A stretch of DNA of 63,718 nucleotides, filler included, from Folioceros fuciformis (lineage: Eukaryota): the NCBI GenBank assembly GCA_049999805.1. It is 7 parts of 7 records of this genome, joined end to end, with 100 filler letters (N's around TTAATTAATTAA, not from the genome) between each part and the next. Parts side by side here need not be neighbours in the genome. Positions count along the whole stretch, not along the records: positions 18,492 to 31,594 come from JBNGIO010004188.1; 6 more parts are not named here. The stretch is one strand, 5' to 3'. The translations under genes and the position numbers were made by a program. The notes beneath the pieces were generated by a model. It made no database searches. It had not been told where the DNA came from and was given only the letters and a program-made list of their open reading frames with translations. This document shows positions 4,907 to 62,385 of this stretch, piece by piece (the first letter of the stretch is position 1; every line of letters begins with the position of its first letter).

Positions 4907-5233
4907 TCACAACATGGGCTCAGAGGGCCCAAAATCAAGTTCAGTGTTAATGTGATTCACAAAATCAAAAGTGGATTCGATTCGGCGAACCATTTCAGCA
5001 ATAGAAACCAAATTGGCGTTGATTTGTGTGATTGAATGCCAAAGAGCTTGATACTGTTGGGTACGTTGTTCCTGTATTGTATCTCTTGCTTGTGCCTCAC
5101 AAAGTTTGTACTCCTTGTAGGTTGTCTCCAGATTCTCGAAAACAGGAGTGAGTTCCTCTCGCTTGATCTCAGATGTCAAACTTGGAAGAGAATCAGCTTG
5201 TACAAAGACTTGTGGTGGTGGCACACAATGCAT
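4907..5233 (-). CDS. Helical/coiled-coil ORF immediately upstream of copia gag (putative element accessory ORF, 5' end lost)
   Basis: Open 108-aa frame on the gag strand ending about 150 bp before the gag ATG; same position as the ORFs at 14769 and 25487. Confidence 0.4.
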   Translation of the reverse strand: MHCVPPPQVFVQADSLPSLTSEIKREELTPVFENLETTYKEYKLCEAQARDTIQEQRTQQYQALWHSITQINANLVSIAEMVRRIESTFDFVNHINTELDFGPSEPML

Positions 5234-5269
5234 AGCAAGTAGTCTCCATCGTGGAGGTAAGCTCGGATC

Positions 5270-6544
5270 TGTCGAGAAAGGCAGTTAGGGCAGAGGTCTC
5301 CATGGCCAAAAGACCAACCCCTCGAAAGGCGATTGGCAAAGAAGCCTGCTTCCGAGCCAAATCACCGACGGCATACTCGAAGGTGCTCGGACCTATGATG
5401 TTTCCCAGAGCCTGCATAACTTGATTGTCAAACTTCCTGAGACTTGATAAGAAAAATAGAGAAGGCACAACAGATCTAGTGAGGTAACCTGGTCGCCGTG
5501 CAACACAAGAAGAAAGGATACCAAACGCAATATGAGGATCACCGATTTGTGAGAGGTCCATGATATGAGCCAAATCTTCATCAACCGCTTCATCCACAAA
5601 CCTATGAACAAAATCAGGAGGTCCTACAGGCACAACCAAGACTCGAAGTCCCTGCGAGGGGGTGATATCCCCTCCTAAATATTGAAGGGGGGGAGTGATG
5701 CTTGAAGGGGACCAAACCCTGCATTTAGATAGCTTGACCCGCAACCCCACCTTGGAGAGCTCTGATGAGAAGAAATCAAATGTTGCTTTAACTGTGACTT
5801 CTTGCCCAAGAATATGAGTGTCATCAGCCACGGAAGGGAAAAGGCATTCCCGAAATGCTAAGGCGGTAGAGGACAATGCACGAAAATGTGCCATTGCAAA
5901 AAGAGCACCCCCCAGCGGATCCCCTTGCCTTGTGCCTATTGCTGAATCAAAAACTGAGACCCCCTCAATAGTCGGGCTGTGCTGGTAGTAAAGCTTGGAT
6001 GGCAAGCCATAGGAGGAACGAACAAAAGGGATAAGACTTGCCAATTGACCTCCTGTACTCTTGAGCTCCGAGAAGATGGCAACCCTAGAGACGGTGTTGA
6101 AAGCATTCTCAATATTAACCTGCAAAGCTACCCAGTGAGGATGTAGCTCAAGGGCCGCCTGAATGCCGAGAGCGGCAGATTCACACCCACATGGGGTAGC
6201 AATCCCAAATTGGTGGGGTGCAAGATACGCTTGGAAGTGCTCTCGAAGTTGAATTGCAATACTTCGGCTGATAAGGCGCAAAAATACCTCTCCCACAGCA
6301 ATAGGGCGCACTCTTGAGGTGGGCTTTTCCAATGCAAGTAGCCTGCTAGCCGCCAAAACTTGAGAGATTCGATTGGGAACTTCGCCCCTAGCCACAGCAG
6401 CTGCTAGTGTATAAAGCTCCGAAAAACTACTTGAGGGATCTTCAGAAGAAAAATAATCTCGAAAGTGGTCATAAACTGTGCCAGACAAACCCCCCGAAGA
6501 AAGTCGCGGCGCAGAAGAGAGTGCATGCCCAAAAACAACCCTAT
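5270..6544 (-). mobile_element. Non-LTR retrotransposon reverse transcriptase, CRE-like, degenerate
   Basis: ASRLLALEKP..VRPIAVGEVFLRL, HQFGI...GCE, QVNIENAFN (catalytic D replaced by N), GTRQGDPLG..LF, SVADD, LRVL.VPVG, QASLPIAF.GVGL. Confidence 0.85.
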
Positions 6545-6644
6545 NNNNNNNNNNNNNNNNNNNNNNNNNNNNNNNNNNNNNNNNNNNNTTAATTAATTAA
6601 NNNNNNNNNNNNNNNNNNNNNNNNNNNNNNNNNNNNNNNNNNNN
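6545..6644. other. Artificial contig-join linker (Ns + TTAATTAATTAA + Ns)
   Basis: Six-frame stop linker embedded in Ns; the same structure recurs six times in the window. Confidence 0.97.
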
Positions 6645-9600
6645 AGCAAGCAGTTAGCCTTAACAGAGAAAAGGCTTCTTATGTCCTGGAAATGGCGGAG
6701 CAGCAATTCTTGCTTGGTGAATTTGACGCAGCTCTCTGCTCTTACCGGTTTGTTGCAAATTTTGACACCAGGGTGACTGCTTGTGACTATGTATTCTGAT
6801 TTTCTCGTACATCTGAGTATGACGTCCATTTGCTATGTAGTAAAGACTTGTGATAGGGGCAATTTGCAGGTTAGCAAGTCAGATGAATTGTTTGGACCTC
6901 GAGGCTTCCTATGGAGTGGTCCAGTGTCTTCTGATACAAGAAGAAGTGAAGGAGGCTGAATTGCAACTACAGCTCATGGTTGAAATATCCGTCTCTATGG
7001 GCAGATCTTGTAGTCTGACCTACCTTCTTGCTCAGTTGAATTGGATAAGTGGTGAAGATGTGAAGGCATGTCTGGACCTGTTGGATGAAACCTTCAACTT
7101 ACACAAGCAGGTACGGACAAGGTGACTTTACGAAGTCCTTTCCGAGGCCGAGTCTTTGTGTTGGAACGCCTTGTGGCGCAAATGACAATGACCTATGGCT
7201 TGCAGGGTGTTCCTAAAAAGTTTGACTATGAATACTTCACGGATCTTAATATGGACAGGTTGTTTGGGATAGCTTATCTATACTTATCCCTATCAGGGGC
7301 CGCATCCCAGGAGGTGAAAACATATGCCTTGGGACAAGCTGCTCACGTACTTGAATACTTGAACAATGCAATTCCGAGTTCTGTGGGCGGCCATCTTATG
7401 CTAGCCCATGTGATGTTTAAACTGGGAAAGCTTGGGTCTACTTTGGACTCCCTTGAGTACCTCCTACGTTTGGACTCTTCGTGTGCATCCGGTCATTTGT
7501 TGCTAGCACAGGTTCCACCCTGCACAATTGTCGACTCTTCACAGTTTTTCCATCACGCATCCCTTTGAAATTATGTAAAGCATTTGCAGGTATATATGTG
7601 CGAAAATAAATACGAGCTGGCTAAGCAAAGTCTTGAAGAAGCTTTGAGTAATGATTTTGCAGTCCGCGATACGATAGATTATCTTGTAATTCATGCCAAA
7701 GTTCTTATGAGTACAATGGATTTTACTGCTGCCAAAAAGGTGCATGCACAATTGTTTGCATGATTATAATGCGATAGGATTTAATCAAATTATTAATATC
7801 AAACATTCATTTGATATGGTTGAAGACTTTGCTATCATGCTAAGTAAGATCTAATGAGACGTTGGACTAAATGAAGTGCAATATAATGAGGCAGGCACTA
7901 GAACATGCCTTGCTACTTTCAGAATCAGAAGTTAAAAGAGGTCAATTGATGTATTACAAATATCCTGGCACAATGAAGCATTTAAATATGATGGGTGATG
8001 ATACAGCTCACATTTTTATGCTCTTAATAGATCTTGACTTAAAATTTGGTATGATAGAAGAAGCAACAATGACAATCCAAAGGGCGAAACCCTTTTTTGA
8101 AGGAACTTCTGATAGAGTAATGAAAAATTTCATATTGAAGAATAAGTTGGGGCAAGGTTAATGAGTCAAAACTATTTGAATTTTAAGTCGGTATCTTTGT
8201 TTTAGGAGCAACTTTTATTAGCAACTTCTGATCTAGCAATGATACAAGCTAATATAAAAGGTGGGCTTCAAATACTTCAACAAGTTTCTAGCAATAGCAA
8301 CCATTACATCCAAGCAAGACTTATTATGGCAGAGATATATCTGAAATACCAAAATGATAAAGCTATGTTCATAAATTGTTACTTGGAGGTGGTTGATAAG
8401 TTTTACAATTCACAGGTTACTATGAGTTCTTTAATTCTTCACTTACTTGACTTAGCTGATGTTTAAAAAAATTTTATTATTTAATAAGATTTAATATGTG
8501 TAAAATAAATATGATTGTGACAATCAGATGTTAATATTATTGAGTGATGCTTTCATGAAAATTAATGCACCTGAACGAGCAATTCTTTCCTATCAAATAG
8601 CAATAGAACAAGGTTTGGAAGATCCATTATTAGCCACAAAGGTAGCAGTTGCCTTTGTATCCATGCATGAATACAAAAAAACCATTGTGCAGTATGAAGC
8701 AATTCTAAAGACTACTTCACATGGTTTTGTGAAATACGGAATACAATATGAATTATCAGGTAGGTTAGTGAAAGTCACATTCATGGCATACATACATTAT
8801 CCTTAGGCTCTATAGAATACAATCATTAACATAAGCTTGTTATCCAGATTTGCAAGTTGCATTAAAGAACTACGAGTATGCAAAAAACATATTAATCACG
8901 TTACTTAAAGAACTTGAATCTGAGTTCGAGTCCTCCAAGTTGGGGATGGTTGAGAGCCAAAAGTTCTTATCGTTATGTGTGAAATCATCTTTACTCCTTT
9001 TAAGAATAATAAATATGGAAGACCAAAACAAAGTTAGAGCAAATGTTTGTCGACTCTTTAATGAACTTCTATTCATTCATGATGTTTGATTCCTTGATAT
9101 CCCTAGCAAGGGCTTGTTTAGAATTTTGTAACATTCCTACAAGTAGATCTTTTTGAGTTTGATCATATCTAGACTTTGAATTGTAATAGGTTTCCTATGC
9201 TATGCAATTCCTCGACATGATTATTGAGAAATTAAGATTTCACATAAAATCTAGTTTACATAGTAGTACATATGCAAAGATCTGCGTTCAACTTTCACAG
9301 GTGGGAATGTTCTCACCTTTCTATAATTAACTCTTAATCATATCCATGTTCTGCTGCACATATGTAAAAGCATGATATAATCTTTTTAGGAATGTGAAGT
9401 GCAAAGTTACTTAGACAAAATTATTCTTTTACTTCACGAAGCCTTAAATTATAATCCCCAAGATGCAGAGCTCTCAATAGCACTTAGTAAAATTCATTTT
9501 GAAAGGTAAAAAAAAAAAAAGATTTCTTTATGTATAGTTAAATTAATTTATTGTGATGGTGTTTTTTTGGGGAAGTAAAGACATTTGAAGTCATCACTCA

Positions 9601-11095
9601 CTTGATTTGATAGGTCAGAAATTGTTGAAAGTGAAGGATGGTGCCTAAAAGCATTGAGTGCAAACCCTTTTGATGCAAAAGCAAAATTTATTCTTGCACA
9701 AGTCATGTTATCCAAAAGACAATATCAATGTGCTATTATGCACTTTAAGCAAATTCTTGAGACCCAACCAAATGATTATATCTCTCTCGCTCAGGTTCAT
9801 ATACTTTAATTATCACCGATTAAAGTTTTGATCACTCACTCAAACTACATAATGGAAAGAGAAAAACACTTGCAAACTAAAACATTTGTTGTATTCAGCT
9901 CGTGCAGTTGTATCGTAAAGTAGACCAATTGGAGAGTGTCCTACCATACTTAAACCGTACACATGGTTTATCATCAAAATCCCACACTCATACAGGGTTG
10001 CAATATTGTAGAGGACTCTATGCTCGATACTCAAACAATCCGTCTAAAGCTCTTCAGGTTTAAATGATTGTGTTATACAAGATATGGATGTTGTTTCAAG
10101 CATCAAAAGTACACTAAATTTGAACATGTTGATTGTTCATACTAGATACTTAATACATCTCGGAGTGATCCATATTGGGGAAAACATATTATTTATATGA
10201 TGATAGAGTTATATCTTAATATCGATGAATTTTTTAGTTGGGAACGGATCAATTCCAGGTGTAATTGGCAAAACCACACACAAGGCATAAAAGCTGCTTC
10301 AAGGCTATTAGTTGAGACCAGGTTTGTTTGTACATCTTAAGATCAAAAAAAGAGTATTCATCAAAAAATATATATATTCACTTCATCTTTTGTTGGATAG
10401 GAAAATTGGCCCTTATACCGCAAAGCAAATTGTTTTTGAGTGTTATACAAAGATGGCCACAGGTGTTAAGAAAGATGTAGAATATGCTCTAGGCCAATTA
10501 AATCTAATTAAAGACAACCACCTTGGTAATGTGTCTATTTTATTGGCCATGGCAATTGCCTTCAATTTGTTATCACAATCAGTTAAAGCCAAGAATCAAT
10601 TAAGACAAATTTTAAAACTTGAATATAAGTGGGAAGATGCTGATGATTTTGAACGTGCATGGTTGATGCTTGCTAGCCTCTACGTACAGGTACCTAGTCA
10701 TTTTTTGTTTTTTTTTTTAATATGAGCTTGCTCTGTATTAAAAACTTTTCTCTTGTTTGTTCTATAAATAGGCCCAAAAGTATGATTTAGCTGAAGAGTT
10801 ATGTACAAGGTGTCTAGAGTACAATGGATCTTGTGCTAGAGCTTTAAAGTACTTAGGACTCATCAAAGAGAAAATTTATGCTCATGCTGAATCTATTAAG
10901 TTTTATGGAAAATCGTTAAGATATTATAAAGGACTATCACCTATGGTTGGGTACCAGCTAGCATTTAATTATGTCAAAGATAGGCACATGATCCCTGCAA
11001 TTTCTATATGTAATAAGATAAGAAAGGCTTACTCAGGTCACCAAAAAATGAAACAAGAGCTCATTGACAAAGCACGTAGTCATATACGAGCTTGA
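6645..11095 (+). CDS. IFT139: Intraflagellar transport complex A protein IFT139 / TPR protein TTC21B (multi-exon, 5'-partial)
   Basis: TPR exons separated by short GT-AG introns. The C-terminus ERAWLMLASLYVQ|AQKYDLAEELCTRCLEYNGSCARA...GYQLAFNYVKDR...ELIDKARSHIRA* matches the TTC21 C-terminal signature. Stop TGA at 11093-11095. Confidence 0.92.
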
Positions 11096-14574: not shown

Positions 14575-14768
14575 ATGTAGCTCTCTATGCTTAAGCTCTA
14601 TGCTTCCTGTTGCTCAATGCTATTCTAAATCTCTTCCATTGTCAACAATGCATTGCAAGGACTTCATTCTAGGCAGCAATCGAGCATAGCATCAAGTGCT
14701 CAAATGATGCAAAATTTGTGCATCCAACTTCTCTTTGCTCTCCATGGATTCTTGTAATCCTAGCAAGC

Positions 14769-15305
14769 ATGGAAGAAAGGAGGAAAGTCAAGACTCAGAG
14801 AAGGAGGCGGCAACAAAAGGACTTCATAGAAGTTTCATCAGAGGACTTTACTCTTTACTCCCCTACTGAACATGATTTGCTTGGAGTCCATGTTTGTAAC
14901 TTAATATTTGCCCTCCTCTCCAAGTCCAAACATAGAGCGAAGTCCATCATATTTGCTAGAAAGACCTTGCTCTCCACACTTAGTCTTTACCAATTAGGTG
15001 CTATTGAGTCCGCAATTTCTCAATTCATCAAATCAAAGACAAGAACTTTCTTCCCTAATCCAGATAAATTACAGCAATCACTTAACACCATCAAATTAGA
15101 AGCTATCCAAATACATACTTCAATTGATGAGAGATTGAATTACCTCAAGCAAGAGATATATTTAATCTCCAAAGCTGTTGAGAAACTAATTGTAGCAGAG
15201 GTTGATATTGCTAACTCTTCTGTCTGGAGCAATACATATACTTGCAATAAAACAATGAAAAGAAGTGCAGCACATGCTTGCGCTTTACTCCCAAATTCGT
15301 CATGA
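14769..15305 (+). CDS. Extra ORF between PBS and gag (basic N-terminus, coiled-coil C-terminus)
   Basis: MEERRKVKTQRRRRQQK...LQQSLNTIKLEAIQIHTSIDERLNYLKQEIYLISKAVEKL; lies inside the element, upstream of gag. Confidence 0.55.
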   Translation: MEERRKVKTQRRRRQQKDFIEVSSEDFTLYSPTEHDLLGVHVCNLIFALLSKSKHRAKSIIFARKTLLSTLSLYQLGAIESAISQFIKSKTRTFFPNPDKLQQSLNTIKLEAIQIHTSIDERLNYLKQEIYLISKAVEKLIVAEVDIANSSVWSNTYTCNKTMKRSAAHACALLPNSS

Positions 15306-15710: not shown

Positions 15711-18170
15711 TGTAGTTTGCAATAATATAATAAAGGTCAAAGTTTTCTTATTAGTATTTCTGCTTAAATAGTAGCTTGCGTGCCTAACCGTTTCACCCTT
15801 AACGGCGTGCCGTTTTGTCCGCGTTTACCTAACACTTATGCTTAAGCATGGTTATGGGTACTAAGTGTGCTTCTAACACCCCCTCTTAAACCGGACGTTA
15901 ATGGTGTTAGGTTTAGGGCAGGCGCCGCCGTACTCGGAATGACCTGGGTGCAGAGTAAGGCGCCGCCTCATTCTTTGAGTGCGAGGCTGAGGGTTCACGG
16001 CGGCTGGCGGTGGGGCTTTTGCGCCATCTTGGTAGACACGAGCTGTGAGTGACTGGCGATCATGTGGAGCTCGTCGTGGGCAGCTGATGCTACAGGATAG
16101 TACAGAGCGGTGTTGTCGTTGTTTGGCCGAGGTCGCCTTTGTGGGGGCTTACCTTCCAAGACTTGGGAGTCGGTGTGAGGTGTGCGACGTTGCCATTGCT
16201 TGTGTTTGAGTGCTCTTCCTGCAACCTTTTCCCTTCGCGAGCTTGCACGCAGTGGCTTGAGGAGCCTAGCTGATACGTATGAGGAACGACTGCGTTGCTG
16301 CTATAGCCTCATCCGTCCGGTGAATGGGTTCTTGTGTTGGTGTTCTTGTCTGGCCCCAGCCTCCATTTGTGGTTTGATGTTCTGCTTGTGTGGCTTGCAG
16401 GTGCCGGGTCACGTTGTGTTGGCCGACAAGAGGGCGGTGGACATGTTCAATGCGAGAGTCGACTAGCGGGTGGCGTCTCGAGTTTTACCCCCTCTCATGG
16501 GCTGTGTCCTGTCAAGGTTCGAGATGGGTGGTGAAGTCACCCAGACCCAGCCCTCTCATGTGCAGGTAGTGGGTGTGCTTGGGCAGGCCCTTAGTGAATA
16601 TGTTCGCTGTGTTTGTCTCCGTGCTAGTGTAGCTAACCTTGATGATACCCCTGGACACCACATCGCGAATATAGTGGTGCTGTATTTTGATGTGTTTGGT
16701 TCTGGCATGGAAGGTCGGCCTTGCCACTAGCTCCAAGGCTGAGGTGTTGTCACATAGAATGGGAGTTGGGTCGGTCTGTGGGTGGCCAAGGTCTGAAAGG
16801 AAGCCTCTCTCCCATTCTGCCTCTTTGGCTGCTTCCATTAGCAATTTGTATTCGGCTTCGATGGAGCTAAGGGCAATTGTGGCTTGTTTCTTGCTGCTCA
16901 AGGTGACTGCTACGGATGTGAGCAAGAAGCAATAGGAGGAGGTGCTCCGTCTAGAGTCAGAGTCGGACGCCCAGTCTACATCTGAGAAGCCAGATAAGTT
17001 GAGTTGTTGTCTTTCGCTTCTCTGGTAGTTTGCTGTCCAGTGCGCTCTCCCGGGGCAGCCCAAGAACTGTGATGCAGTACTAACTGAGTACTGTATGTTA
17101 GGCCTGGTCCAGTTGGTGACGAAGATTAGGCTGCCGACGGCATGCCTGTAGGGTACACCTTCCATGTCCTTCAGCTCATTGGGCGTCTGTGGGCTCTGTT
17201 GGAGTGTCAGCTTGGTGCCCACTGCATATGGAGTGGTAGTGGGTCTGGCCTGATCAAGATGGAACTTCAAGAGGATCTCATTGATATACTTGCTTTGGTG
17301 GATAAACGGGATTCCAGCATCTCGTACGCGTAGGAGTTGGATGCCCAGGCAATATTTCAGTTCTCCTATGTCCTTCATTTCGAACCTCTTGTGTAGCTGT
17401 GCCTTCACTTCTACTAACAAGTTGTGGTTGTTTGTGGCAAGTATCAGGTCGTCAACGTATAAGGCGAGGAGTACGATGGAAGATCCTGTTGCCAGTCTAT
17501 ACACATTGGTGTCTGTAGCATTCTGAGTGAAATTAATGCTCAGCAAGTACTCGTGCATGGTGAGGTACTATACTCTCCCACTCTATTTCAGAGTGTAGAT
17601 GCACTTCAGTAGCCTTAACACTTTATGTGGGTGTGTAGGGTCTTGGTAGCCTTTGGGCTGGAGCATGTACAGTTCCTCGTCAAGGGCCCCATAGAGGAAG
17701 GCTGTGCATACGTCCATTTGCTGGAGGTCCAGGTCGAACTCTGTGGTGTAAGCGAGGATGAGGCGAATAAACTAGCTGCGAACTACGGGTGAGAAAGTTT
17801 CTTGGTAGTCCAGCCCCTCCATCTGAGTGAACCCTCTAGCCACCAGTCGTGCTTTAAATCTAGCAACTTCTCCCTTGGCATTCAGCTTAAGTTTGAATGT
17901 CCACTTGCAGGATATGGCCTTCCTGCCAAGCGGGAGATCAACAAGGGTCCAGGTATTATTCTTGATTAGAGACTTGTATTCGTCTTCAACTGCCGAACGC
18001 CATTGCTTGCACTCAGGGCTACTAAATGCCTGAGTGAGTGTCGTAGGTTCTTCAGGTAGCGGCCAGCCTGGGTTGAGTCTAGGGACGGCATGTGCCTTGA
18101 AGTCTATAGAGGCATAAGGTGGCTCCCTCCATTCAGATGGGGGGGGTCTGGTCTATGGTGCGTGGAACGG
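15711..18170 (-). mobile_element. Ty1/copia 3' half: RT-RNaseH, ~630-bp 3' region, PPT and 3' LTR (15711-15878)
   Basis: LYVDDL, DIGELKYCLGI, FSDVDWASD..SRRSTS, TKHIKIQHHYIRD, ANIFTKGL. PPT TTAAGAGGGGG precedes TGTTAG at 15878; the LTR ends ...CTACA at 15711. Confidence 0.92.
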
Positions 18171-18491: not shown

Positions 18492-19224
18492 CTCCAGCTC
18501 TGAAACACCATTCCTCCGAAACCATCGGAGGGCTACCTTCCGCCGCCAGCTCTTCTGCACTCGTGTCACGGCCTGCGCCGAACTGGATCCCGAGCTCTGC
18601 CTTCGCCTTCAGGCCAGCATTCTTCACTGTCCTGATGAGCTGCAGATGGTCCTCTTCAGAAAGGCTGATAAAGCCCGTGCTCAGCTCCACTACGTCGAAC
18701 CCCAGCTCTTTGCACTCCTGCAATCACACGGCAACTGATGCAATGAGCAGACGTGATGTCATCACCATTGGCGCATGCACCCGCAGTTGCGGTCCGCTCA
18801 CACCATCGATCATTCACCTGTACATAAGGCTTGAAGAATTTCCATCCGTTGGCCAGCACATGCTCAGCCCAGCCTCCAGTGCTCACGTACACACCGTTCT
18901 CGTGAGCCAGCTCAGTGATTCTCTTCACCCCGTCCCTCGACATCAAACTGAAGGAGCCTCCAGCGAACTTGAGCCCGTCCACATAATGCCCCATGGTATC
19001 CAGAATGTCCTGATCAAGCGAGGTGGTCCTTCTGCGTCAGGAAGGTGTGTGCGTGCATTGTCTCTTGGACACGGAAGATGTTCAAAAAGCTCACCAACCT
19101 CCAGATATCGGGGTCCCATGACCGTGTAGTAAGGTCCTCGAATCTCCGTAATTCCATATGCTCGAGGCTTGTCTGGCCTCTCGCTCACATCCACAAAACT
19201 GCAGCACCGCGTCGGCCTTGGCAT
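18492..19224 (-). CDS. HSA32: HEAT-STRESS-ASSOCIATED 32 / phosphosulfolactate synthase (ComA)-like, 3'-partial
   Basis: Spliced RPDKPRAYGITEIRGPYY...|DILDTMGHYVDGLKFAGGSFSLM...AHENGVYVSTGGWAEH...|ECKELGFDVVELS...GLKAKAELGIQFGAG; cut by the contig end. Confidence 0.9.
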
Positions 19225-21338: not shown

Positions 21339-21950
21339 CTAAGCAACAGGCAGCAAGACTTCATTGGTCTTCATAAAGCTAAGAGTGAAAGGTGGGTTGT
21401 ATCTAGCCAAGATGGGGTCCCCAGTGACCGTATACCCTGCCTGCTGCAAAGCTTGCCTCAGCCTCTCCCGTTTCTTCTCCACCAGTTGCTCAGTTGCCGA
21501 GCCAGAGAAGGTGATCACGCCAAACTTCCTGCCAGGAACCTCCCTGATGGCTACAGCTTCATCCGTGGGCTTAGGAACATTTTGGAGGTTGTACTTGGAA
21601 GGCAGGATAAACTGCATCGTTATGAGTCCTCCCTTCTCTTCTGTCACGACTGGAGCAGTCATGGCAATCTTCTCTGCCTTGGCCTCCTGGGTGATGACGG
21701 GTGCTGTCATGGCGATCTTCTCTGCCTCCCCTTCCTTTCCCCCCGTCGACTTCACATTCTTCGGATTACCCAGAGCTCCTATGAAATTGGCCAGCGTCAT
21801 GAACGCTTTGCCCTCTTTGACTTGCAGTGGGTCGTACGAAGTTTCTGCAATCAGCCAAGGCTCGTACTCTCTTATCTCGTAGTCAGTTTCCTTGGCTGCA
21901 ACAGTGTACTTGGGAGTCTCTACAGTAATTCTGCCCAATACCATACCCAT
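21339..21950 (-). CDS. SOUL family heme-binding protein
   Basis: MGMVLGRITVETPKY...YEIREY...AFMTLANFIG..G.P.N...EKIAMTAPV (x2)...MQFILPSKY...LARYNPPFTL...TNEV; intact, single coding exon. Confidence 0.95.
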   Translation of the reverse strand: MGMVLGRITVETPKYTVAAKETDYEIREYEPWLIAETSYDPLQVKEGKAFMTLANFIGALGNPKNVKSTGGKEGEAEKIAMTAPVITQEAKAEKIAMTAPVVTEEKGGLITMQFILPSKYNLQNVPKPTDEAVAIREVPGRKFGVITFSGSATEQLVEKKRERLRQALQQAGYTVTGDPILARYNPPFTLSFMKTNEVLLPVA

Positions 21951-24900
21951 TTTGGAGAACGTAGTTGCTGGTTCCTGTCAACAACCCACTATCAGCACCA
22001 CATCTTTCGGTCTTTCCAACTCAACATGATTCTGCAACCCTTTACGACTCACACCGACCTCGGTGTGCCCCCGTTGTCTCGTCCACTCAGTCTCACACCT
22101 GTTGAATTCGATGAGGTACGGTTCAGCACGACCTGAGTGGGTGACATACATGCCCGCTCGCAGCTATCAAAGAAGCCACTCATTTTAGCCTGCCAGCTGT
22201 CTTCCCTATGTTTTTTAGTTATGTATATCTCTATATTCATTTACTTCAGTTTTTCAATGTCAGCACTTTCGATTACCTACCTCTAACGCACTAACTTCAG
22301 ACTTCCTAGTCCGAGAGAAACGTGGGTTCAAATTCAGTATAGTCATTGAGGAATAATCAAGTATGAAGTCCCTAGTATTTTCACCTCAATTTCTATTTCC
22401 TACTTTCTCCTCTTTTAATCATCTTCATGGCCAACACGCTCCCCCGTGTGGCATACCAATGAGTCTTGGGGTGATCAATTGAAACAATTGATCACCCCCA
22501 TGAGCTTTGACACTAGGATCCTGGAGTTTTTTGGAGATAGTATTGGCTGTGGTACCAAACCTGCATATATTATTGGTTGTGGTACCTTCAACTGTGATGT
22601 CATGGATCTTGCAAGGCAACATATGTGTCTTCCTATCTTGTTCGAAAGCATTGGCTAGCAAGCAATAGAGATATTGGCACCAGCGTCCTTTCAGAGGAGT
22701 TGGGAGCTTTCGACTCCCTGTTTGGCTTCTCATTTTCGTATCCAAGATTCTTGTGTGTTTGGAATCTTTCACCCTCGGAGTTGAGAAGGGTGCCCTCCCT
22801 TTGCAAGTGTTCCTAAAATCGACTAGGGGATACTCTGCATTAATTTTCATCTTTTCTTGCAATGGGTATTCAAGGGCTCCAAGCTTCTCGTCATGCAAAG
22901 AAATATAAGCAAGTGTAGCTCAATTCTCTTTGGGATTCTTCTATCTCTCAGCTCATTTGAGCGTGACTCCGTTCACGCTTGGGAAAGGGTTTAGGTGCTT
23001 GGGAAAGGGTTTAGGTTCTTGGCTTCACCTAGTATCTAGGCTTTCCGAATTGCACCAACCACATAACACATATTTGCTCTGCTCTATTGCATAATATAAA
23101 CGTAACACATGTCTTCACTAGTACATAGTGTAAATGTTTATCTTGCTACATAACGTGAAAGTCCACCTCCCAACAAAAATATGGCTCCTACCTCAAAACT
23201 TCACATCACCCTCTAATAGATACTTTATTTATTTATTTTTAGGAAAACTAGATAGGAAACCCTTCCACCCCTGAGAAGTTAAGACAAATAACCAAATGGC
23301 AACTGCAACACAAGGGACTAGCCCCCTTGCAAGGAATGTCAAAGAAGGGAGGACCACTCAAAGAAGGAACCCCTAGGTTCCTCCGAACTATCAGGTGCTC
23401 CGGTTTGGGCGTAATCAATGTCCGCTCCAGGCGTGGGTGGACTCTGAGGCTGATCAGAAGGTCACCCCCCGCAAGCGGTAGTGTGCACTCGCCATGCATG
23501 ACAGGATTCCCGGATGGCAATTCTTGTCCTCCAGCGAAATACATGCAAGGCGCCACGACACATCAACCATTCTATACGTTAAGAGTACAAATTTCTATTA
23601 GATTTGGTAACCTCGATGCATCACAATGCTCATTGCCAAGTGGGGCATAGGGTATTTCCAGTTCCCTGTACAAGTTGTCTTATTTTTTCACATGTTGCAG
23701 GAAGATGTTCATGATGTTCACTCGAAGAGGCCTAGGAGCATGCTCGCAAGTAGGACAAAGGCATTAGATTTTCGGGATGAACGCATTCCAGGTTGGAGCG
23801 TCCATGGCTAGAGTGAAGCATAAGTACCTTCAGCCCAGCTCATTTGGAGTAGGCAGCGGTAGCGCAGAAGGTGGAGCGCAAATGTTGGCAAATGCAACAC
23901 AAAGTGAGTCCTTGGAGCAAGGTTGCTTGCACAAGTTGATTGAGAATAAGAAAGACCTCTACGTGAGGAGGAATGGGGTGAAGCCAATGTGGACTTGGTA
24001 CCACATAATCCGTTGACGAGCAGAGACTGTGATTACTGCAGCATACAAGTTCGAGTCAATAGAGTTTCTCACAGTGTGGGTGAGGGGTCCAGGGCGATGG
24101 AATTTCCAACTATTGGAGGGGGCTATAGTGTCTTGTGCGAAAGCAGCGTTTACAGCAATGCATATCCACATTAGGGCTGCTGGTCCATATTCCCAGTTGA
24201 AAGAGCCCATGCCAGTGGAACTACGTCGATGGTGCGCAGCATGCCACCCTCATTGAGGGCCTGGCATTTTGGATAGGGCAAAGGACCTTGGGAGTTTGGC
24301 TACTGATGTTATCGAGGCTATGTGCAAGAAGTCCTTGAAGGCCTGCAACTACGTTGTTGAAGTTGGCACACAAGCTTCCAAACTCATGTTCACATGTTTT
24401 GCAATGGCGTCCCACTTCTTCATACTAGTGGTTGATCTGGAGCCAAGTTTCACAGAGGATCATACATTGCAAGCACGAAAGGAGATGGGGGAGCTAAACA
24501 TGAGGAAGGAGCTAGAGGATGATATGAGCAACAATATCTCGAAGACCAAGAAAGGGAAATTTGATCTGGTGAGAAATGTGGGACCACCATGGGAGGAAAA
24601 GTAGCATGTTTTGTAGACGGAGCCGCTTTGGACATGGTCAAGAAAATCACAAGGAGAATGACCATCATGAAAAAATTTGTTTCTCGAAACTGGTATGTAG
24701 GCCATACTCAAATGATGTTATTCATCTACAATCGATGAGATCATTTTGTTTGCTTCACTAATTTATGTGTGAACGTCTCAAACTCAGGGTTGTTGTAAAT
24801 GGTTTTGTAAAATAGGTGACGTGGCACAAATTACTGACTAGGTATGAGAGCCATATCATCCAATGATGACATGGCACTTCATAGGATGGGAGCCACATCA

Positions 24901-25109
24901 TCAAAATATGCCAAGTCATCATATGGTGACATGGCAAGAAAATTCCACGTCTGAATAACATACCACGTCATTGCTCGATGATGTGGTGTGTGCACATGCT
25001 CCTCCCCAAAACCATGAGCCCCAATGCTGAGTGGCCACAAGCCCCAATGCTGAGTGGCCACACCCACTATCGTTGTAGGCTTCTCTGGTCCGTCCCCGTA
25101 AGTGATTTG

Positions 25110-25272
25110 TATTAGGGTTATTCAATAAAGTCTAGTTAACCTCGCATGGTTAACATTAGGGTTACATTATAGAAGTATTTAAGACAATTTTTTTTGTTGA
25201 AGTTAATAATAATTCATTCTCTTGTGCACATGTGAGTTTGGTGTTCGAGAGCTTTCGCATTATTTATTTACA
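25110..25272 (+). repeat. 5' LTR (163 bp) of a copia element
   Basis: TATTAGGG...TTTACA (TG mutated to TA), followed by PBS TGATATCAGAGC (25273-25284). An inverted near-identical copy lies at 30564-30720. Confidence 0.9.
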
Positions 25273-25486
25273 TGATATCAGAGCAGAATACAATTTAGTG
25301 CTAGAATGCTGAGTCTATAGTTCGCATTATGCACATAATATAGCGCAGTCTATCTCAAAGTAGGCTACGTTGTGTGCATAATGGATTGTAGGCTCTGCGT
25401 GTTTAGCACTAGGTTAATTGATTCTAGAGAATATCTAAACTTCAAGTAAATGATGCAACTAGAAGTCACTAGAAAATCTTGTCGAT

Positions 25487-26032
25487 ATGACTCGTAGGAA
25501 TTCCAATCGTCCCTATCGGGCTGTTGAGAATTTCTGCAACCACAGGGCATGGCATCAGTCACCTAGTGGGAACTCAGATAGCTATCGGGAAGAGGAATCT
25601 TACCCATTCTTTACTCGGTTACAAAGGCTTACTAAGTTGTTTCTTGAGTCACAGCACAATTCTCCTTTTAACAGAAGCCAACGTAGAGCTGAGTATAGGA
25701 GAATTACGGCTACACATCGACAAGGAAATTCAACGTCAGAAGGCGATCGTGAAACTAGGCTATTTATTTCCAGCCTATGTGCAGAAATTGCAGCGCGTCT
25801 TTCAGTCCAAGAAGCAGCAATTTTAGAATTGCAATCAAGTATCTCAACAATTGGAGCATTGTCTTCAGCAATCCTGCACTTAGTTCAACGCGCCGACAAC
25901 CACATCATTGGAGCAAATGACTGCTTAGCTGATGTTGGAAGGGCAGTGATTTGTCTTACTACTTATCAAGGGTTGACGTTGAACATCCAGCCTGCTACAC
26001 CTCAAGGGAGGCAGGCACCTAAGTTGGCCTAG
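25487..26032 (+). CDS. Extra ORF between PBS and gag (181 aa, R-rich N-terminus, heptad-like C-terminus)
   Basis: ATG-initiated open frame inside the element, about 200 bp after the PBS and about 410 bp before gag. Confidence 0.55.
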   Translation: MTRRNSNRPYRAVENFCNHRAWHQSPSGNSDSYREEESYPFFTRLQRLTKLFLESQHNSPFNRSQRRAEYRRITATHRQGNSTSEGDRETRLFISSLCAEIAARLSVQEAAILELQSSISTIGALSSAILHLVQRADNHIIGANDCLADVGRAVICLTTYQGLTLNIQPATPQGRQAPKLA

Positions 26033-26443
26033 TTTAGTTCATATTCAATGCTTGTGGGCGCTCCATCAGAGGTGCAGGGCATCAGCCAACGCATGGCGAC
26101 GGGGGTCTGCAGCTTGATTTCAACCGCCGTGGTCATCAGACATTTCGGTTGGTCCTTCCTGACATTTGTCACCAAAACTCACATTTGAATAGGCATCTTG
26201 ATCTAAAAAATAACGTTTCATATCATGTTAAGTTTTTTGAACCGTTGCTAACCCTACAAAATGTCACTGGCATGCTGCTTACCGTTTCATGCCTTCTTTT
26301 TGGGATGAGTCAAATAGTGAGCTAGATGAGTCGTCAAATGTAGAGGAGGATTTTCTACGGTCTCTTGCATCTCAGTTTTCGATCTTTGTACTCCGGCATT
26401 CCTACAAAATCAACCACCCCCATAACCACGACCCATTATCAAT

Positions 26444-29400
26444 ATGGGTACTAATGTAGCAATTGGCTCTACTTATACGGGAGAGTTTAAAGAGAAGGAT
26501 CGGTTTGATGGGAAACCTGCTAGATTCGAGAGCTGGAAAGCTAGGATGAAAGCTCATCTGAATGCACGTGACATGTGGGAGTATGTGGATGGTTCGATCC
26601 CAAATCCCAACCTTGTCCCGTCCACTGCAGCACATCAACCCACAGCTGATGAAATAGCCAACTGGAACAAAGGGAGTAAAGTGGCATTTGCCATACTTTT
26701 CAATGGACTGGATGAGATAACAGTCACAGAAGTTGAGTTCCTTGAGACAGCAGCAGCTGTCTGGAATCAGTTAGTTGACACTTACCAGGTCAAAAATGTC
26801 TGCACCTTGATTCATGTTTGAGAACAATTTCACAGTCTTAGGATGAAGGAAGGGGATCCTGTTGGAACCTATGTCACAAAGTTGAGGTACCTCCGGGCAC
26901 AACTGTTTGCGGTGGGAGCCAAGACGATTGATGTGGAGATGGTTCCTCAACTGTTGACCGGCTTGCCTCCATCCTATCAGACTTTTATCTCAGGACAGAA
27001 TGCTTCCTTGCGTGCTGCCTACCAAGCAGCAGCCAGTGGACAGCCTACTACCTTGGACTTGAATGAAGTCATTGGAGCGCTCCTACAAGAGGAGCACAGC
27101 AGACACAAGTTAGGTGGCACTCATCTTCGAGGTGAGAAGGTCCTGTTTGCATCGAAAGGCAAAGGACCTTGGAAGGGGAAAGGAAAGAAGNNNNNNNNNN
27201 NNNNNNNNNNNNNNNNNNNNNNNNNNNNNNNNNNNNNNNNNNNNNNNNNNNNNNNNNNNNNNNNNNNNNNNNNNNNNNNNNNNNNNNNNNGCTGTCCGCG
27301 GTGGGAGCCAAGACGACTGATGTGGAGATGGTTGCTCAACTACTGATTGGCTTGCCTCCATCCTACCAAAATTTTATCTCAGGTCAGAATGCTTCCTTGC
27401 GTGCTGTCTACCAAGCAGCAGCCAGTGGACAACCTACTGCCTTGAACTTGAATGAAGTCATTGGAGCCCTCCTGCAAGAGGAGCAAAGAAGACATAAATT
27501 AGGTGGCACTCGTCTTCAAGGCGAGAAGGTCTTGTTTGCAACAAAAGGCAAAGGACCTTGGAAGGGGAAAGGAAAGAAGGGTAACTCATCTCAAAATCAA
27601 CATTCCTCGATGCCTGTCGCACCGAAAAGGCAAGGTAACTGCAATTGGTGTCAAGTGCCAGGTCACTGGGAACGTGACTGCCGCAAAAAGAAAGCTGGCG
27701 AGGCCAAGAGGGAGAGCAAGCCTGAGGCTCATGTCACATCCAGTGTGAAGATCAATTCTTCAAGTCAGTGGAAACCCAAGAGCAACAGTTCTATATTAAC
27801 AGTTTGCTTGACGTCTTACAGGGAAACTTCTTCCTCCTGGTTTGTTGATTCAGGTGCCACTGCACATGTCTGTACCAACCGTCAGCTGTTCTCCACCTTT
27901 CACAAACACACAAACAGAGGTCACCACAGTTAGTTTTTGTTGGGGACTCTAGAGGTGTAGAAGTTAAGGGCTGTGGAAATGTAACCATACCTTTGCTAGG
28001 AGGTGCGCTCTTGTACTTGGAAGATGTCCTGTACTTACCTGATATGAGCAAAAACCTACTGAGTATTAGGGCTGTGGCACAAAGTCAGCAGTATGGCTTC
28101 CGTTTTGAGGATAGGAAATGCTACATTTATGAGCTTAGTAACCCACAAGACTATGTAGCTAAAGCCATACTCGCCAATGATTTGTACCAGCTAGTCACAG
28201 TTACCAAGTCTAGAGCTAGGGCTTTAGTTGCTGCATCATATGCACAAGCTAATCTCTGGCATGCAAGGTTGGGTCATGTCAACAAGTTTAAACTGAACAT
28301 CATGGCCAATTCAGATTTGTATAGGGAGAAATTACCTTCTTGTTTCAAACTTTTAGAGCCTTGTAGCTCCTGTATTCTGTCCAAGCAGAAGGAGCTACCA
28401 TTTAAGAACAAGACACCTAATCGTGCCAAGGCCTTGCTTGAACTCATACACGTCGACATTGTTGGAAAAATTCAGGTCAAGTTGTTAGGAGGTGTTGAAT
28501 ACTATCTAACATTGACAGACGATTTTTCAAGATACACGTGGACATTTCCCATCAAACATAAGAGTGATGTGTATGATCATATTGCACCCTGGATCCCTAT
28601 GGTGCAACGCCAAACAGGCCATTTGGTGAAGTGTTTCAGGACTGATAACGGAGGAGAGTTCATAGGCTAGAAGTTTGATGATCTCTTCCAGCAGTTTGGA
28701 ATTATTCGCCAACTCTTTGTGCCCTACACGCAGCAGCAAAATGGGGATGCTGAGAGGAAAACCAAACACTCATGGGAATGACAAGATGCGTGTATCATAT
28801 GCAGGGCTGCAAAAAAACTACTGGGCAGAAGCAGTTGTGACAGCAACTTACTTGTTGAATAGAGTGGTCACATCTGCTATACCTGGAAAGACACCTTATG
28901 AAGCTTTCTAGGGAAGAAAGCCAAGCTTGTCACATCTCAAGGTCTTTGGATCACCAGCGTTTGCATTCATTCATGAAGCAAAGCGCAAGAAGTTAGATGA
29001 CAGGGCTAAACAGTTGGTGTTTGTTGGATACTCAGAGGAGTCAAAGGCTTACAAACTATTTGATCCAGCAACATCTAAAATAACTCTGTCCAAAAGTGCA
29101 ACTTTCAAGGAGCTTGTCCTCCGACAGACTGATGTGGACACAAGGGGTTCTTGCAGCTCTTCTCGTTCCAAGTCACTAGTGGACGAGCAATCTCTCATAG
29201 TCCCGGTCCATTATCCTCAATCTGATGGAGAGTCACCAGATGCTGATGATCACATAGTTGTGGATGATGTTATAAATCCTCTTGCTCCAGCTGCTCAGCG
29301 TGGACAGCTTATTCCTCAGAACCCTAATTTGTAGGTAGCTAATGATGATCTTTCAGCTAGTGTAGATCACTCCGAACATGAAGGCAGAGAAGATGAACAT

Positions 29401-30475
29401 CTTGCAGATGCTGCTTACCTTGAATCAGATATGGATGCAAATGCTGCAAGTGTTGTAAGCCATAGTGATGCTGGCTCTCTTGGTTCGGAAGACTTTCTCT
29501 TGAATTCAGATCATACAGAGGAAGAGGGAGCACCTCCTGCCGCTGCAGTGGGGGATACCTCCCCTCGGTATCCTGTCCGTGAACGCCTTCCATGGGCAGA
29601 GTGGCAGGAACACCTGTATCAGGCTATTGATTTTCGCAGACCATTAGCTCATGTTACTGATTTACATGTGCTTGAAGTTAGGCCTGATCCTTAGAGTTAC
29701 AAAGTGGCACTTGAAGGGCCCGATGGTAAACATTGGAGGACTTCGATTGATGATGAGTATAGCTCGTTGGTCAAGAACAATACATGGGAACTTAAAGATT
29801 TGCCTCCTGGCTGGAAACCTATCACATGCAAGTGGGTTTTCAAAACTAAACTAAAGGCAGATGGCACTATTGCTAGGTATAAATCACGACTAGTAGCTCG
29901 GGGTTTCTCACAGATACCTACAATTGATTATGGAGACACCTTTTCGCCAATGGTCAAACCGCATTCCGTTTGGATTTTGCTAGCCATGGCTGCTCACTTT
30001 GATCTCGAACTCCACTAGATGGATGCTTGCACAGCCTTTCTTCATGGGGAACTTGAGGAGGTCCTATACATGGACTACACTGAAGGATTTGTTGATAAGC
30101 AATTTCCTAATAAAGTCTGCAAGCTGTTAAAAACCATATATGGGCTCAAGCAGAGCCCTTGTGCATGGTACAAGAGGATCATGAAGTTCCTCACAAAGCA
30201 TGGCTTTATTCAATCTCCAGCAGATTCTAATGTTTTTTACCTCAATTTTGACGGGCTATTTGTCATTCTTGCTCTTTATGTAGATGATGCAATTTTGTTG
30301 AGCACCCGCCTCTTCTTCGGTCTTAATTTGAAATGACAGATCAGGCACCGCTTGCCTTCCATCTCGGTATACAAATCCTACGCGATAGGTTACACGGCAC
30401 CATCATTTTACATCAGACCAAATATATCACAGAAATTCTTAAGTGGTTTAATCTGGATTTTGCAAAACCTGTTTC
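26444..30475 (+). mobile_element. Ty1/copia gag-protease-integrase-RT, degenerate, broken off within RT
   Basis: FKEKDRFDG, CNWCQVPGHWERDC, WFVDSGATAH, LWHARLGH, IHVDI, RTDNGGEF, KSRLVARGFSQ, LYVDD; multiple stops and frameshifts. Confidence 0.95.
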
Positions 30476-30563
30476 ATCATCCGGAGGCAATTATCACTCT
30501 TGTCCTTCATTCCAAATATCTCACCAGTAGCACTGATAGTTTTTGCTACTATAATCAGCAAAT

Positions 30564-31594
30564 TGTAAATAAACAACACGGAAGCTCTCGTACACCAAAC
30601 TCGCACAAGAGAATGAATTATTATTAACTTCAGTAAAAAAAATTGTCTTAAATACTTCTGTAATGTAACCCTAACGTTAACCATGCGAGGTTAACTAGAC
30701 ATTACTAAATAACCCTAACACTCCCTCTTAACCGAACAGGGTTAACAAAATCGGGCCTACAAAAAACGGTGTTTAGGGCTAGCTCTCGTATCTAGTCTTA
30801 GAGTCATTAAGACTGAGCAGGCAAGCGAAGCATGAGCGATTCTTGAGTTACATGCAGGACAGGCGAGGACATAAGCGCAAGGAACAAGCGATGTCCGGCT
30901 GTGTGGCCATGAAGACAAATAGTGAGCTTGCGCTTGCAGTCATGTGCATCATCACAGCAAAGAGCATAGCGGCAGGCAACAGCATGGAGGCATGGCGCAA
31001 GCAGAACCTGGCTACTAAGGAGGGAATGACCACCACCAAGGCTGGCGCGGCCGCGTTCTTGGAGATGAACTCAGCAATTTCGACGGTGATGGTCGACCCA
31101 AGTCCCTACTGTGCTGTAGAGAGGGCTAAGCATTCGGCATGGTGGCCAACGCTGGCAGATCAAAATCTGGTCTCACACCTCATGCTGACTCTGAAGAAGA
31201 TGGAGGAGCTTGACCGCGTACTTCAGTTCGCCAAATTGAGGTCAATTGAGCTGGAAGAACTGGTGGCTAGAATCCTTGCTTGCCTACCTCGCATGTTTCC
31301 ACTTACAGTTCCTGAGATCCAGGAGATGGCCAAGGAGCTGAAGGATATGGGCTTCGAGAGCACACTACAAAAATCAGAAGAAGCATCTTACATTGAGAAT
31401 GATCGTGTGTCGTAAAATAACAAAAGCAATGTCTTGTATCTTATGCCATACGTTATGGCGGTTAGGTATTTTTGTGATTATGTGTCTTTTCACGTTAGGC
31501 TATCTAGCCCTAGCTAAAACTTATTTAACTTAATCTAGTTGTTGACTAGCTGACGCTAGACTATTCCTAGGCTTCACTTTGCACCCCCACTTAG
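30564..31594 (-). mobile_element. Inverted copia 3' end: 3' LTR (30564-30720), PPT and 3' internal region
   Basis: The reverse complement reads TTAAGAGGGAG-TGTTAGGG...TTTACA and matches the 25110 LTR apart from about a dozen substitutions and one 6-bp indel. Confidence 0.88.
30843..31415 (+). CDS. Antisense accessory ORF in the copia 3' region (WWP...PLT helical protein)
   Basis: Open 190-aa frame antisense to the element; homologous to a decayed frame at about 61560-61860. Confidence 0.6.
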   Translation: MSYMQDRRGHKRKEQAMSGCVAMKTNSELALAVMCIITAKSIAAGNSMEAWRKQNLATKEGMTTTKAGAAAFLEMNSAISTVMVDPSPYCAVERAKHSAWWPTLADQNLVSHLMLTLKKMEELDRVLQFAKLRSIELEELVARILACLPRMFPLTVPEIQEMAKELKDMGFESTLQKSEEASYIENDRVS

Positions 31595-36410: not shown

Positions 36411-37162
<752 letters not shown>

Positions 37163-57290: not shown

Positions 57291-57795
57291 CCCCTATTAG
57301 GTCAGAACTAGGTTTGGGTCAAAGTTAGGGTTAGATCAGAGTTAGGTTTAGGTCAGAATTAGGGGCGGCTTAGGTCAGAGAGAGATTGCTGGGTGGTTGA
57401 CTGAGGCTAACCCTAATAGATAGAGATGGAGGTTTGGGCCAAGGTAGTATAAGAGGCTAGACCTGCCATTGAGGAGGGGGCTGTCTACGGTGCGATTTTC
57501 CTGGACCTTGGGTGCAGAACTCCTGGCTTAAGGCGCTGAGCTGGTTGAGACTAAACCAAGGTCTTGATTTCCCTTGCCACTAGGGGAACGTGGAGGATCC
57601 CAAGACTGCCAAGATTCGTGTGGCCGGATCCGCAATGGCTGACCACCTTGCATGCTGGCTGAGGTGAGGTTGCAGGGCCGTGAGCCAAGGAGGCTACCCA
57701 GCCCTAGGCCTCGCCTTTGCCTTGAAGGCTGCAAGAGGGAAGGCTGGTGTGTTCCAAATTGCAAGAGAGAAGGGTTGAGTTGAAGATTTTGGAAG

Positions 57796-57943
57796 TGGAA
57801 GTGTTGAAGTGAGGAGTTGAGCTGAAGTGAGGGGCTGGAGGGTGAAGTGAAGTGCTGAAGTGAAGGACTGAAGTGCTGAAGTGCTGAAGTGAAGGACTGA
57901 AGTGCTGAAGTGAAGGACTGAAGTGCTGAAGTGAAGGACTGAA
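57796..57943. repeat. TGAAG-based tandem repeat (GAAGTGCTGAAGTGAAGGACT)
   Basis: 21-bp units and sub-units running into an N gap. Confidence 0.85.
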
Positions 57944-59349
57944 NNNNNNNNNNNNNNNNNNNNNNNNNNNNNNNNNNNNNNNNNNNNNNNNNNNNNNNNN
58001 NNNNNNNNNNNNNNNNNNNNNNNNNNNNNNNNNNNNNNNNNNNCGTTCAGCTGCGGAGGTAGCTAGCACTAGGTGCTGAGAGTTGGAGGCCAGACTTGGG
58101 GCTGGAGCCTCCTCTTAGCACTGAAGTGATTGATACTTGGAGCTGGAAATGAGGGCTGAAGACAATGCTGGAGTTCTCATTTTGTTGAGGCTGGGGTTGG
58201 TGTTGTGGTAGGAGCCGAAGACAGGACCGAGACTTCTGACCTATTGCTGTAGCACTTGGTATATGCTGATAGATAGGGTGAGATTAGGGAGATGTAGGTA
58301 ACCTTGACATTAGTTCACTCCCTTGGAAGCGAATCATAAGACTGCAACGATAATAAGGGGAAGTGTGGCCCCTTGGTGGTTCTTGGGTGTGCAAGAAATC
58401 ACTCCACACTGCCATATATCCAGTCAAGCTGGATGTTTGCATCACATGCCCAAGTCCGTAGGTCTATCAAATCCCTTGAGTTTAGTTGGCCCCCAAATCA
58501 AGAAAAGGACAAAACATTGGTTTGGGGAGAGTTGGCTACCCTCGTGGGTCGTCCCCTACTACCGGAACCCACCTGAGTATTGTTGGAGGTCCGCGCCATA
58601 GTTGATGGAACAAAACCCCAAGAATGTCGGTTGCCCTCCTTTACGCAAGGTTAGTATACCCCTACCTCCGTAGGCAACTGCTCCCAGCTTCTGTGCAGCT
58701 GATTTCACGTCCCTTGCACGTTTCTCCCTATGGCCCTCACCACAGCAAAGCCCTTTCTCTCTCTTTGAGTCCGCTTGGTCACAACAAGTAGGTCCCCGGC
58801 GTAGGTGTCTTGTCGCACAACTACTCCCTTATTCCCCGCTATGTAGGTAGATGTAGTTCCCTACGTGGAGGTGAGCACCCTTTGTTGATGGGACACCTTA
58901 GGTTGGGACCCCTTTAAATACCCTCTTGTCGTAGGTATACTTCTATATGTAGTAACTGCCCTTAATAGATACCCTACATAGGTGTCCCTTTTTCTGTAGG
59001 TAGCTTGCCCTTCACAACTATATTTCTTATTTGGGTACTACCTCCCACAGAGATATCCTCCCTACATGGGCATACCTCCCTATAGGTAGCCATCCCAAAG
59101 AAGGTAACTTCTTTATAATACTACCCCTTATTATCTCCACTCATCTAACCTACCAAACCAAGACCAAACAAAACTGAAAATGTTATTAGCCGCTCCCTAC
59201 CTACTGTGGGTATTTGCCAAAAACCCACATTCCACAAAGGACTCCACTTATGTACCTATTGTTTCATCCAACCCGGAAAGTAGGATAGAAAATCCTATTT
59301 TGTTTCCCTTTTTCTACTTATCAACCATATCTTCTACAAGTTCTAACTC

Positions 59350-62300: not shown

Positions 62301-62385
62301 CTCAGTATATAAATGCACAATACACTTTATTATAAACACTTTTTAGAACTTTCCTTGCTTATGTGTTTCTGCTAGTGCAAACACA
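59350..62385 (+). mobile_element. Ty1/copia 3' half: IN-RT linker, RT-RNaseH, ~900-bp 3' region, PPT and 3' LTR (~62233-62385)
   Basis: KSRLVARGFSQ, LELHQMDV, YGLKQSPRAW, LYVDN, FADANWA, SSTEVEY; PPT TTAAGTGGGAG at 62222-62232. Confidence 0.92.
61560..61860 (-). pseudogene. Decayed antisense accessory ORF homologous to 30843-31415
   Basis: SASWWPSQVD / frameshift / AAIVALVLQATANKCDELSNLLTKAKAAIEELVELLTREPSNDMSTQPLT*DEVREMIQGIAD. Confidence 0.6.

Follow-up and report, generated by a model that had tools for sequence, protein, structure and literature searches.

An antisense reading frame with a conserved C-terminal domain beside the 3' LTR of two Ty1/copia elements from Folioceros fuciformis

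The elements and their direction

The window analysed here is a stretch of 63,718 nucleotides from Folioceros fuciformis (assembly GCA_049999805.1), made of seven contigs with spacers of the form N44-ttaattaattaa-N44 between them. The Ty1/copia element el1 and its antisense frame occupy the right end of the third contig (18492-31594, JBNGIO010004188.1), next to another copia element, element A. A copia element of a second family, el2, lies on a separate contig, the seventh (57291-63718). The features of element A and el1 that matter here are the following:

25108-25285, plus strand: 5' LTR of element A (25108-25273) and primer binding site of tRNA-Met type (25274-25285), of the same family as el1.
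30564-30720, minus strand: 3' LTR of el1, 157 bp, TG...CA on the minus strand, recognised from the inverted LTR copy and the junction motif at 30716-30734.
30721-30734, minus strand: polypurine tract with its conserved join to the beginning of the LTR (on the minus strand CGGTTAAGAGGGAG, then TGTTA), from the motif search.
30783-31415, plus strand: open frame of 210 codons, stop to stop, antisense to el1, from ORF reading and dinucleotide shuffles.
30852-31415, plus strand: the antisense ORF as counted from its first ATG (187 aa), with its stop at 31413-31415, from translation.
31098-31346, plus strand: conserved C-terminal domain of about 83 codons with a WWP motif, amphipathic helices and PLT..E..EM, from the alignment with el2.
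31530-31594, minus strand: presumed 3' end of el1 pol (20 codons and the stop), up to the contig end, from translation, from aligning the DNA with el2 where its pol ends, and from read depth.

The direction of el1 was established from its LTR. The segment 30603-30721 is an inverted copy, 93% alike, of 25109-25227, which lies inside the 5' LTR of element A, a copia element on the plus strand, and TGATATCAGAGC, directly after this 5' LTR, is the primer site. TGATATCAGAGC is one mismatch away from TGGTATCAGAGC, which we take to be the canonical tRNA-Met primer site. As the inverted copy corresponds to a 5' LTR followed by a primer site of tRNA-Met type, the direction of the el1 LTR is fixed, and on the minus strand the purine tract AAGAGGGAG precedes it. 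The junction motif CGGTTAAGNGGGAGTRTTA has two exact matches, in el1 and el2, and one further site with three mismatches, with 0.07 expected by chance. Since 30564-30720 is a minus-strand 3' LTR preceded by a purine tract, the frame at 30783-31415 is antisense to el1. The stop at 31530 probably ends el1 pol, on the grounds given in the list above; in public reads, depth is much higher at 31480-31594.

Element A, on the plus strand, has gag from 26426, integrase at 27849-28670 (rve and gag_pre-integrs, 27849-28667) and reverse transcriptase at 29695-30530, with Pfam support, so that integrase lies upstream of reverse transcriptase on the same strand, which is the Ty1/copia order. Its gag is of the copia type (PF14223 and PF14244). 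The terminal features of Ty1/copia are also present among these elements: LTRs with TG...CA ends, a primer site following the 5' LTR of element A, and a purine tract ahead of the 3' LTR in el1 and el2. Element A is strongly decayed over 26426-30530, where its pol holds several stops in frame, and ends abruptly at 30563, el1 beginning at 30564. Also in its gag, 26903-27190 and 27292-27579 form a direct repeat of 288 nt, 90% alike, on either side of a 100-N gap, probably an assembly or scaffolding duplication.

We assigned el1 to the family of element A from the likeness of their LTRs and read the two, on sequence grounds, as members of one family that are nested or inverted head to head. That el1 has kept a 210-codon frame, against the decayed pol of element A, suggests that el1 is the younger insertion, nested in element A. 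The original prediction had described el1 and el2 as copia elements, which is retained with the correction that el1 appears to be inserted in reverse into an older member of its family.

The features of el2 are listed below:

59756-61325, plus strand: reverse transcriptase, RNase H and pol end of el2, decayed and 5'-truncated (RVT_2, PF07727, E 2.6e-24).
61604-61858, minus strand: remnant of the conserved antisense domain, with one in-frame stop and two mutually cancelling frameshifts, from frameshift-tolerant alignment.
61620-62084, plus strand: sense open frame of 154 codons, its third codon positions coinciding with those of the antisense frame, read as a shadow of the latter.
61796-62074, minus strand: upstream antisense open stretch, 92 codons, lacking an N-terminal ATG and any similarity to el1, from ORF reading and a shuffle test.
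62219-62385, plus strand: polypurine tract junction (62219-62232) and 3' LTR (62233-62385), from the junction motif and alignment.

The pol end at 61325, the antisense domain, the junction and the LTR up to 62385 thus follow one another in el2 within a single contig. The reverse transcriptase and RNase H region of el2 matched 845 proteins, the best by bits being from Marchantia polymorpha (343 bits) and the closest by identity an unnamed protein (51%), which indicates that the database searched covers plant proteomes and copia polyproteins. Taken with an intraflagellar-transport gene in the window, of which TTC21/IFT139-like pieces are present, the Marchantia match suggests that the source plant has motile sperm. 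Bryco elements are reported to have a half-tRNA-Met primer site, whereas that of element A is full-length. In both el1 and el2, the spacer between pol and the polypurine tract is unusually long (about 800-890 nt). The flanks of this region, that is the pol end and the purine-tract junction, align between el1 and el2, and the LTRs of the two families hardly align beyond the junction.

The antisense frame and its conservation

The open antisense frame foreseen at el1 is present: it runs from stop to stop over 30783-31415, and the start that had been given for it, 30843, is in frame and 9 nt before the ATG. Along the plus strand the purine tract comes first (30721-30734), then the frame and then the putative pol stop (31530), so that the frame lies between pol and the 3' LTR and opposite to gag-pol, a position that places it in the aORF-3R or eORF-3'R class. 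A frame of 210 codons or longer appeared in one of 5000 dinucleotide shuffles of the el1 spacer (30723-31530). The G+C contents at its three codon positions (0.545, 0.412 and 0.61) look like those of coding sequence, as far as composition goes.

The protein of el1 was compared with el2 by local protein-to-DNA alignment allowing frameshifts, using a custom script. The alignment reached a score of 93 over 85 columns, 31 of them identical, 46 positive and 2 with gaps, against means of 31.8-31.9, standard deviations of 3.9-4.9 and a maximum of 54 for shuffles of the el1 protein (100 and 400). The remaining five frames of el1 scored 28-46 against either strand of el2. When both strands of the whole window (63.7 kb) were scanned, the el2 site was the best place outside el1 itself, the next best scoring 46. 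tblastn alone gave no match because el2 is frameshifted. The decayed antisense frame that had been proposed at the same position in el2 was recovered at 61858-61604 on the minus strand, with its one stop and two frameshifts.

The likeness exceeds chance and is limited to a C-terminal domain of about 83 residues. The protein-level conservation claimed earlier therefore stands for the C-terminal part (31098-31346) and not for the N-terminal half, where the observed score of 28 compares with a null mean of 26.7 and is reached by 64 of 200 shuffles. In the C-terminal tail, the last 22 residues, similarity is not above that of shuffles. Two copies enter this comparison, and the el2 copy is decayed and its start unclear.

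A third, more distant copia element shares the junction:

15874-16511, minus strand: end of a third copia element, with its pol stop at 16512 and the junction motif, with three mismatches, at 15874-15892, from motif and similarity scans.

Its spacer (15893-16511) is about 620 nt long with 57% G+C, holds several short frames on both strands and shows no similarity to the antisense protein. The presence of a shared junction without a similar frame indicates that the gene is confined to a sub-lineage, or was lost there.

Selection and alternative readings

We consider that the antisense frame is probably a real protein-coding gene kept by selection. Over the antisense domain, el1 and el2 give pN 0.451 and pS 0.755, the latter saturated, and thus an uncorrected pN/pS of 0.60, and the reverse transcriptases of element A and el2, 80% identical over 81 codons, give pN 0.133 and pS 0.885. 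With synonymous sites thus saturated from one family to the other, neutral sequence should no longer be recognised, and a domain that is still 36% identical argues for long purifying selection, weaker than that on the reverse transcriptase. The original prediction had spoken of a copia accessory protein under selection, possibly undescribed. In line with this, the alignment is significant and frame-specific, pN/pS is 0.60 rather than near 1 (for two copies with saturated pS), and the literature searched yielded no described family that matches.

A first alternative, which we regard as unlikely, is that a host-gene fragment or other piece was captured once by a common ancestor of the two elements and is now drifting without use. 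The G+C content at third codon positions fits such a source: it is 0.61 in the antisense frame and 0.58 in the el2 piece, near the values of host genes (0.60 for the SOUL gene, 0.575 for ubiquitin) and unlike the pol of element A and el2 (0.38-0.45). Passages of PMC7264820 name transduction as one way in which such ORFs are proposed to have arisen, and the el2 copy is decayed. Against idle drift, 36% identity with a pN of 0.45 at saturated synonymous sites requires long purifying selection after any capture, and capture as an origin is in any case compatible with a selected gene. Nor was a host or other homologue found. An exhaustive phmmer search of 1.84 billion representatives returned a single hit, a tandem-repeat protein judged spurious as a relative, and word-based searches for homologues of near and shorter lengths returned no relative. 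A Pfam scan up to E 10 gave only a chance-level match to TRM (E 0.13, below its cut-off), with no match to Transposase_28 (PF04195), SMC or bZIP. There was no usable match in the ESM Atlas, for the whole protein or for residues 80-187, the best PDB match by sequence had an E of about 1, and metagenome contigs searched by protein and by junction motif gave none.

Slightly less probable still, in our view, is that the spacer is non-coding, acting in cis within the RNA or DNA of the element or serving to template a regulatory antisense RNA such as that of yeast Ty1 copy-number control, with the el1 frame arising by chance. Antisense non-coding RNAs of retrotransposons are documented (PMC7264820, in the passages at hand), and the broken frame of el2, the unconserved N-terminal half and the internal deletions of some copies all count in its favour. 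What it does not account for is the frame specificity of the similarity (93, or 131 on a fixed nucleotide alignment, for antisense, against at most 46 or 55 elsewhere), the three-base periodicity of identity, and a frame length reached by one shuffle in 5000; the region has no Rfam match either.

The genomic copies bear on the same point. We viewed them through public DNA contigs from one sample of the same organism, in a listing that favours deeply covered regions. Many copies are 80-99% alike across the frame; three joints show some that have lost 164-430 nt from its 5' part, a point against the coding reading. Among the pieces listed (8 of run X1, of which 242 more exist), three lie in or nearly in the frame: one has 46 substitutions and a single gap, and the other two have 22 and 25 substitutions and no gap (93 to 1 in sum). 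The piece in the LTR carries 17 substitutions and 9 gaps, that in the downstream flank 11 and 12 (28 to 21). None of the 12 best-supported of 56 indels falls inside 30852-31412, before the stop codon. This near-absence of indels among diverged copies, confined to the frame in the pieces listed, hints at a coding role and is support rather than proof. The few majority variants that the listing gives within the frame comprise one synonymous change, three non-synonymous ones and a stop that comes one codon too soon; they are private to the el1 copy and uninformative on selection.

Two other runs gave observations of a different kind. In the contigs of run X3, which is from the same sample, over 30400-31594, 100 of about 136 changes relative to the window are C>T or G>A, as would come from bisulfite-treated DNA; if so, the methylation state of el1 could be read from them. 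Run X4, only guessed to be RNA, has one contig on 31396-31594, which extends leftwards in diverged form and shows neither strand nor expression.

It is also conceivable, with little probability, that the sense strand codes, as a SIRE-like forward ORF downstream of pol (61620-62084 in el2) of which the antisense frame would be the shadow. This 154-codon frame is open in el2, and it is a close competitor in codon statistics. Identity between el1 and el2 over the 83 codons is 0.52, 0.58 and 0.34 at the first, second and third positions, the third being the least conserved; an alignment optimised on amino acids inflates the first two. The sense frame that shares these third positions fits the position identity equally well and has a pN/pS of 0.57. 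Since third positions of the two frames coincide, such statistics cannot separate these two frames; stops and amino-acid scores can. Of the two copies el1 is the less decayed, and there the antisense frame is free of stops, whereas the matching sense frame has five (5-10 over the sense frames of el1). When scores are optimised freely, antisense reaches 93 and sense 46. With the nucleotide alignment kept fixed (114 of its 240 positions agree), the antisense BLOSUM sum is 131, with 30 of 80 residues identical, and that of the best sense frame is 55, with four stop columns. Moreover, the sense frame is stop-poor by construction, because its stops would, by our derivation, need antisense Tyr, His or Gln codons. 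The stops in the el1 sense frames and their scores of 28-46 speak against a SIRE-type sense ORF in these elements, and we read the el2 sense frame, from these comparisons, as a shadow of the antisense frame.

Finally, the same small mobile element or gene might have inserted independently, in reverse, between pol and purine tract in both families; nested insertions are common here, el1 itself lying inside element A, but this is highly improbable given the same position and direction in two families whose flanks align, no terminal or tandem repeats found around the frame, and no further copy elsewhere in the window.

Known antisense genes and a possible role

A selected antisense gene in el1 and el2 would have its nearest counterparts in the Ty3/gypsy superfamily. 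Antisense ORFs between pol and the 3' LTR are described for maize Grande (gene23), rice RIRE2, Silene Retand and the bean ORF2 families; in bean the 15 families with an antisense ORF2 are gypsy without exception, and the extra ORF of two copia families is env-like and in the sense direction (passages of PMC7264820, PMC11963269 and PMC4093653). The same passages present a regulatory role as proposed and unproven for Grande gene23, the Retand TRP28 proteins and retroviral antisense proteins. These gypsy aORF-3R genes share with the frame described here its place, its antisense direction, its conservation among related families and a function that is not established. They differ in their hosts, which are Ty3/gypsy rather than Ty1/copia, and in size: the bean proteins have 211-939 aa, compared to 187 aa in el1, and the Retand spacer measures 2.9-6.6 kb, compared to about 0.8-0.9 kb in el1 and el2. 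Retand TRP28 also carries Transposase_28, to which the el1 protein shows no match in the Pfam scan, and on this ground the gene does not group with TRP28.

Among copia elements, the only lineage-typical extra ORF named in the passages at hand of the REXdb survey is the sense env-like ORF of SIRE (PMC6317226). SIRE and el1 have in common an extra ORF downstream of pol, in sense direction in SIRE (eORF-3'F) and antisense in el1. For its count of extra ORFs, which took in 582 copia elements of 45 groups, the survey required a minimum of 250 codons (PMC6317226, same passages), a cut-off that a frame of 187-210 codons would escape. The original prediction had placed antisense 3' ORFs mainly in Ty3/gypsy and taken the Sirevirus ORF to be sense, which agrees with passages of PMC7264820 and PMC6317226. 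A copia antisense ORF family is not described in the full-text literature searched, as far as the portions at hand go; reverse ORFs of copia elements may be listed in the supplements of PMC6317226. Antisense transcription as such occurs in Ty1/copia, with copy-number control in yeast Ty1 and promoters in AtRE1 and Mdoryco1-1 (passages of PMC7264820 and PMC11624286); those cases concern promoters or non-coding RNAs, whereas conservation between el1 and el2 is at the protein level.

Retroviral antisense proteins are cited as a model for a regulatory role (PMC7264820, in part). HTLV-1 HBZ resembles the el1 protein in being a small protein encoded antisense beside the 3' LTR, and differs from it in that el1 has no bZIP match and its antisense LTR promoter is only inferred.

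By eye, a basic patch follows the first Met of the el1 protein, and the conserved domain shows amphipathic helices. A single-sequence AlphaFold2 model contains helices only, at low confidence (pLDDT 46.4), and the protein is accordingly no more than predicted to be all-helical.

With a modest lean in its favour, we interpret the locus as that of a bryophyte-like Ty1/copia lineage with an antisense gene of its own, expressed from the 3' LTR side and encoding a helical protein with a new domain (WWP ... PLT..E..EM). An accessory gene of this lineage would fill the spacer that separates pol from the polypurine tract, running against gag-pol. Its mRNA might start in or just inside the 3' LTR, where the TATA-like TATTTAA of U3 reads TTAAATA on the opposite strand, about 200 nt upstream of the ATG, and would end within the approximately 115 nt between the two convergent stops. 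The product, about 130-187 aa long, would be helical; its N-terminus would vary between elements (that of el1 is basic), and its conserved C-terminal domain may serve for interaction. By analogy with Grande gene23, Retand TRP28 and HTLV-1 HBZ, it could act in trans on the expression or replication of its own element, although any specific role is at best a tentative suggestion; the anti-silencing and particle-related functions offered in the original prediction are likewise no more than guesses.

Copia elements are held to be structurally uniform. If the interpretation of an antisense gene is true, el1 and el2 would have in copia what Tat/Retand gypsy elements and deltaretroviruses have in their antisense genes, and antisense regulators would have arisen in the two superfamilies of LTR elements independently of each other. 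Antisense accessory proteins would then be a recurrent solution in LTR elements and retroviruses. The domain of el1 and el2 would also add a protein domain without relatives, in a compact case (about 0.6 kb) for questions of function. Annotation pipelines for transposable elements that seek only gag-pol domains would label the el1 spacer non-coding.

Other open frames were seen in the window. In three copia elements, sense open frames of 125-210 codons lie ahead of gag, after the 5' LTR region, at 25463-26032 (plus strand), 14673-15305 (plus strand) and 4907-5284 (minus strand). They have no Pfam match, resemble one another with BLASTP E values of 0.35 or worse, and do not match the antisense protein; they may be fast-evolving leader ORFs or chance frames. 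At 5193-6596 on the minus strand, a frame of 467 codons runs into the contig end and resembles, by eye, a non-LTR (LINE-type) reverse transcriptase. Pieces of host genes with Pfam matches lie at 7089-7565, 10312-10722, 18659-19036, 21342-21977 and 36535-36936, and include TTC21/IFT139-like ARM domains, a ComA-like domain, a SOUL haem-binding protein and ubiquitin.
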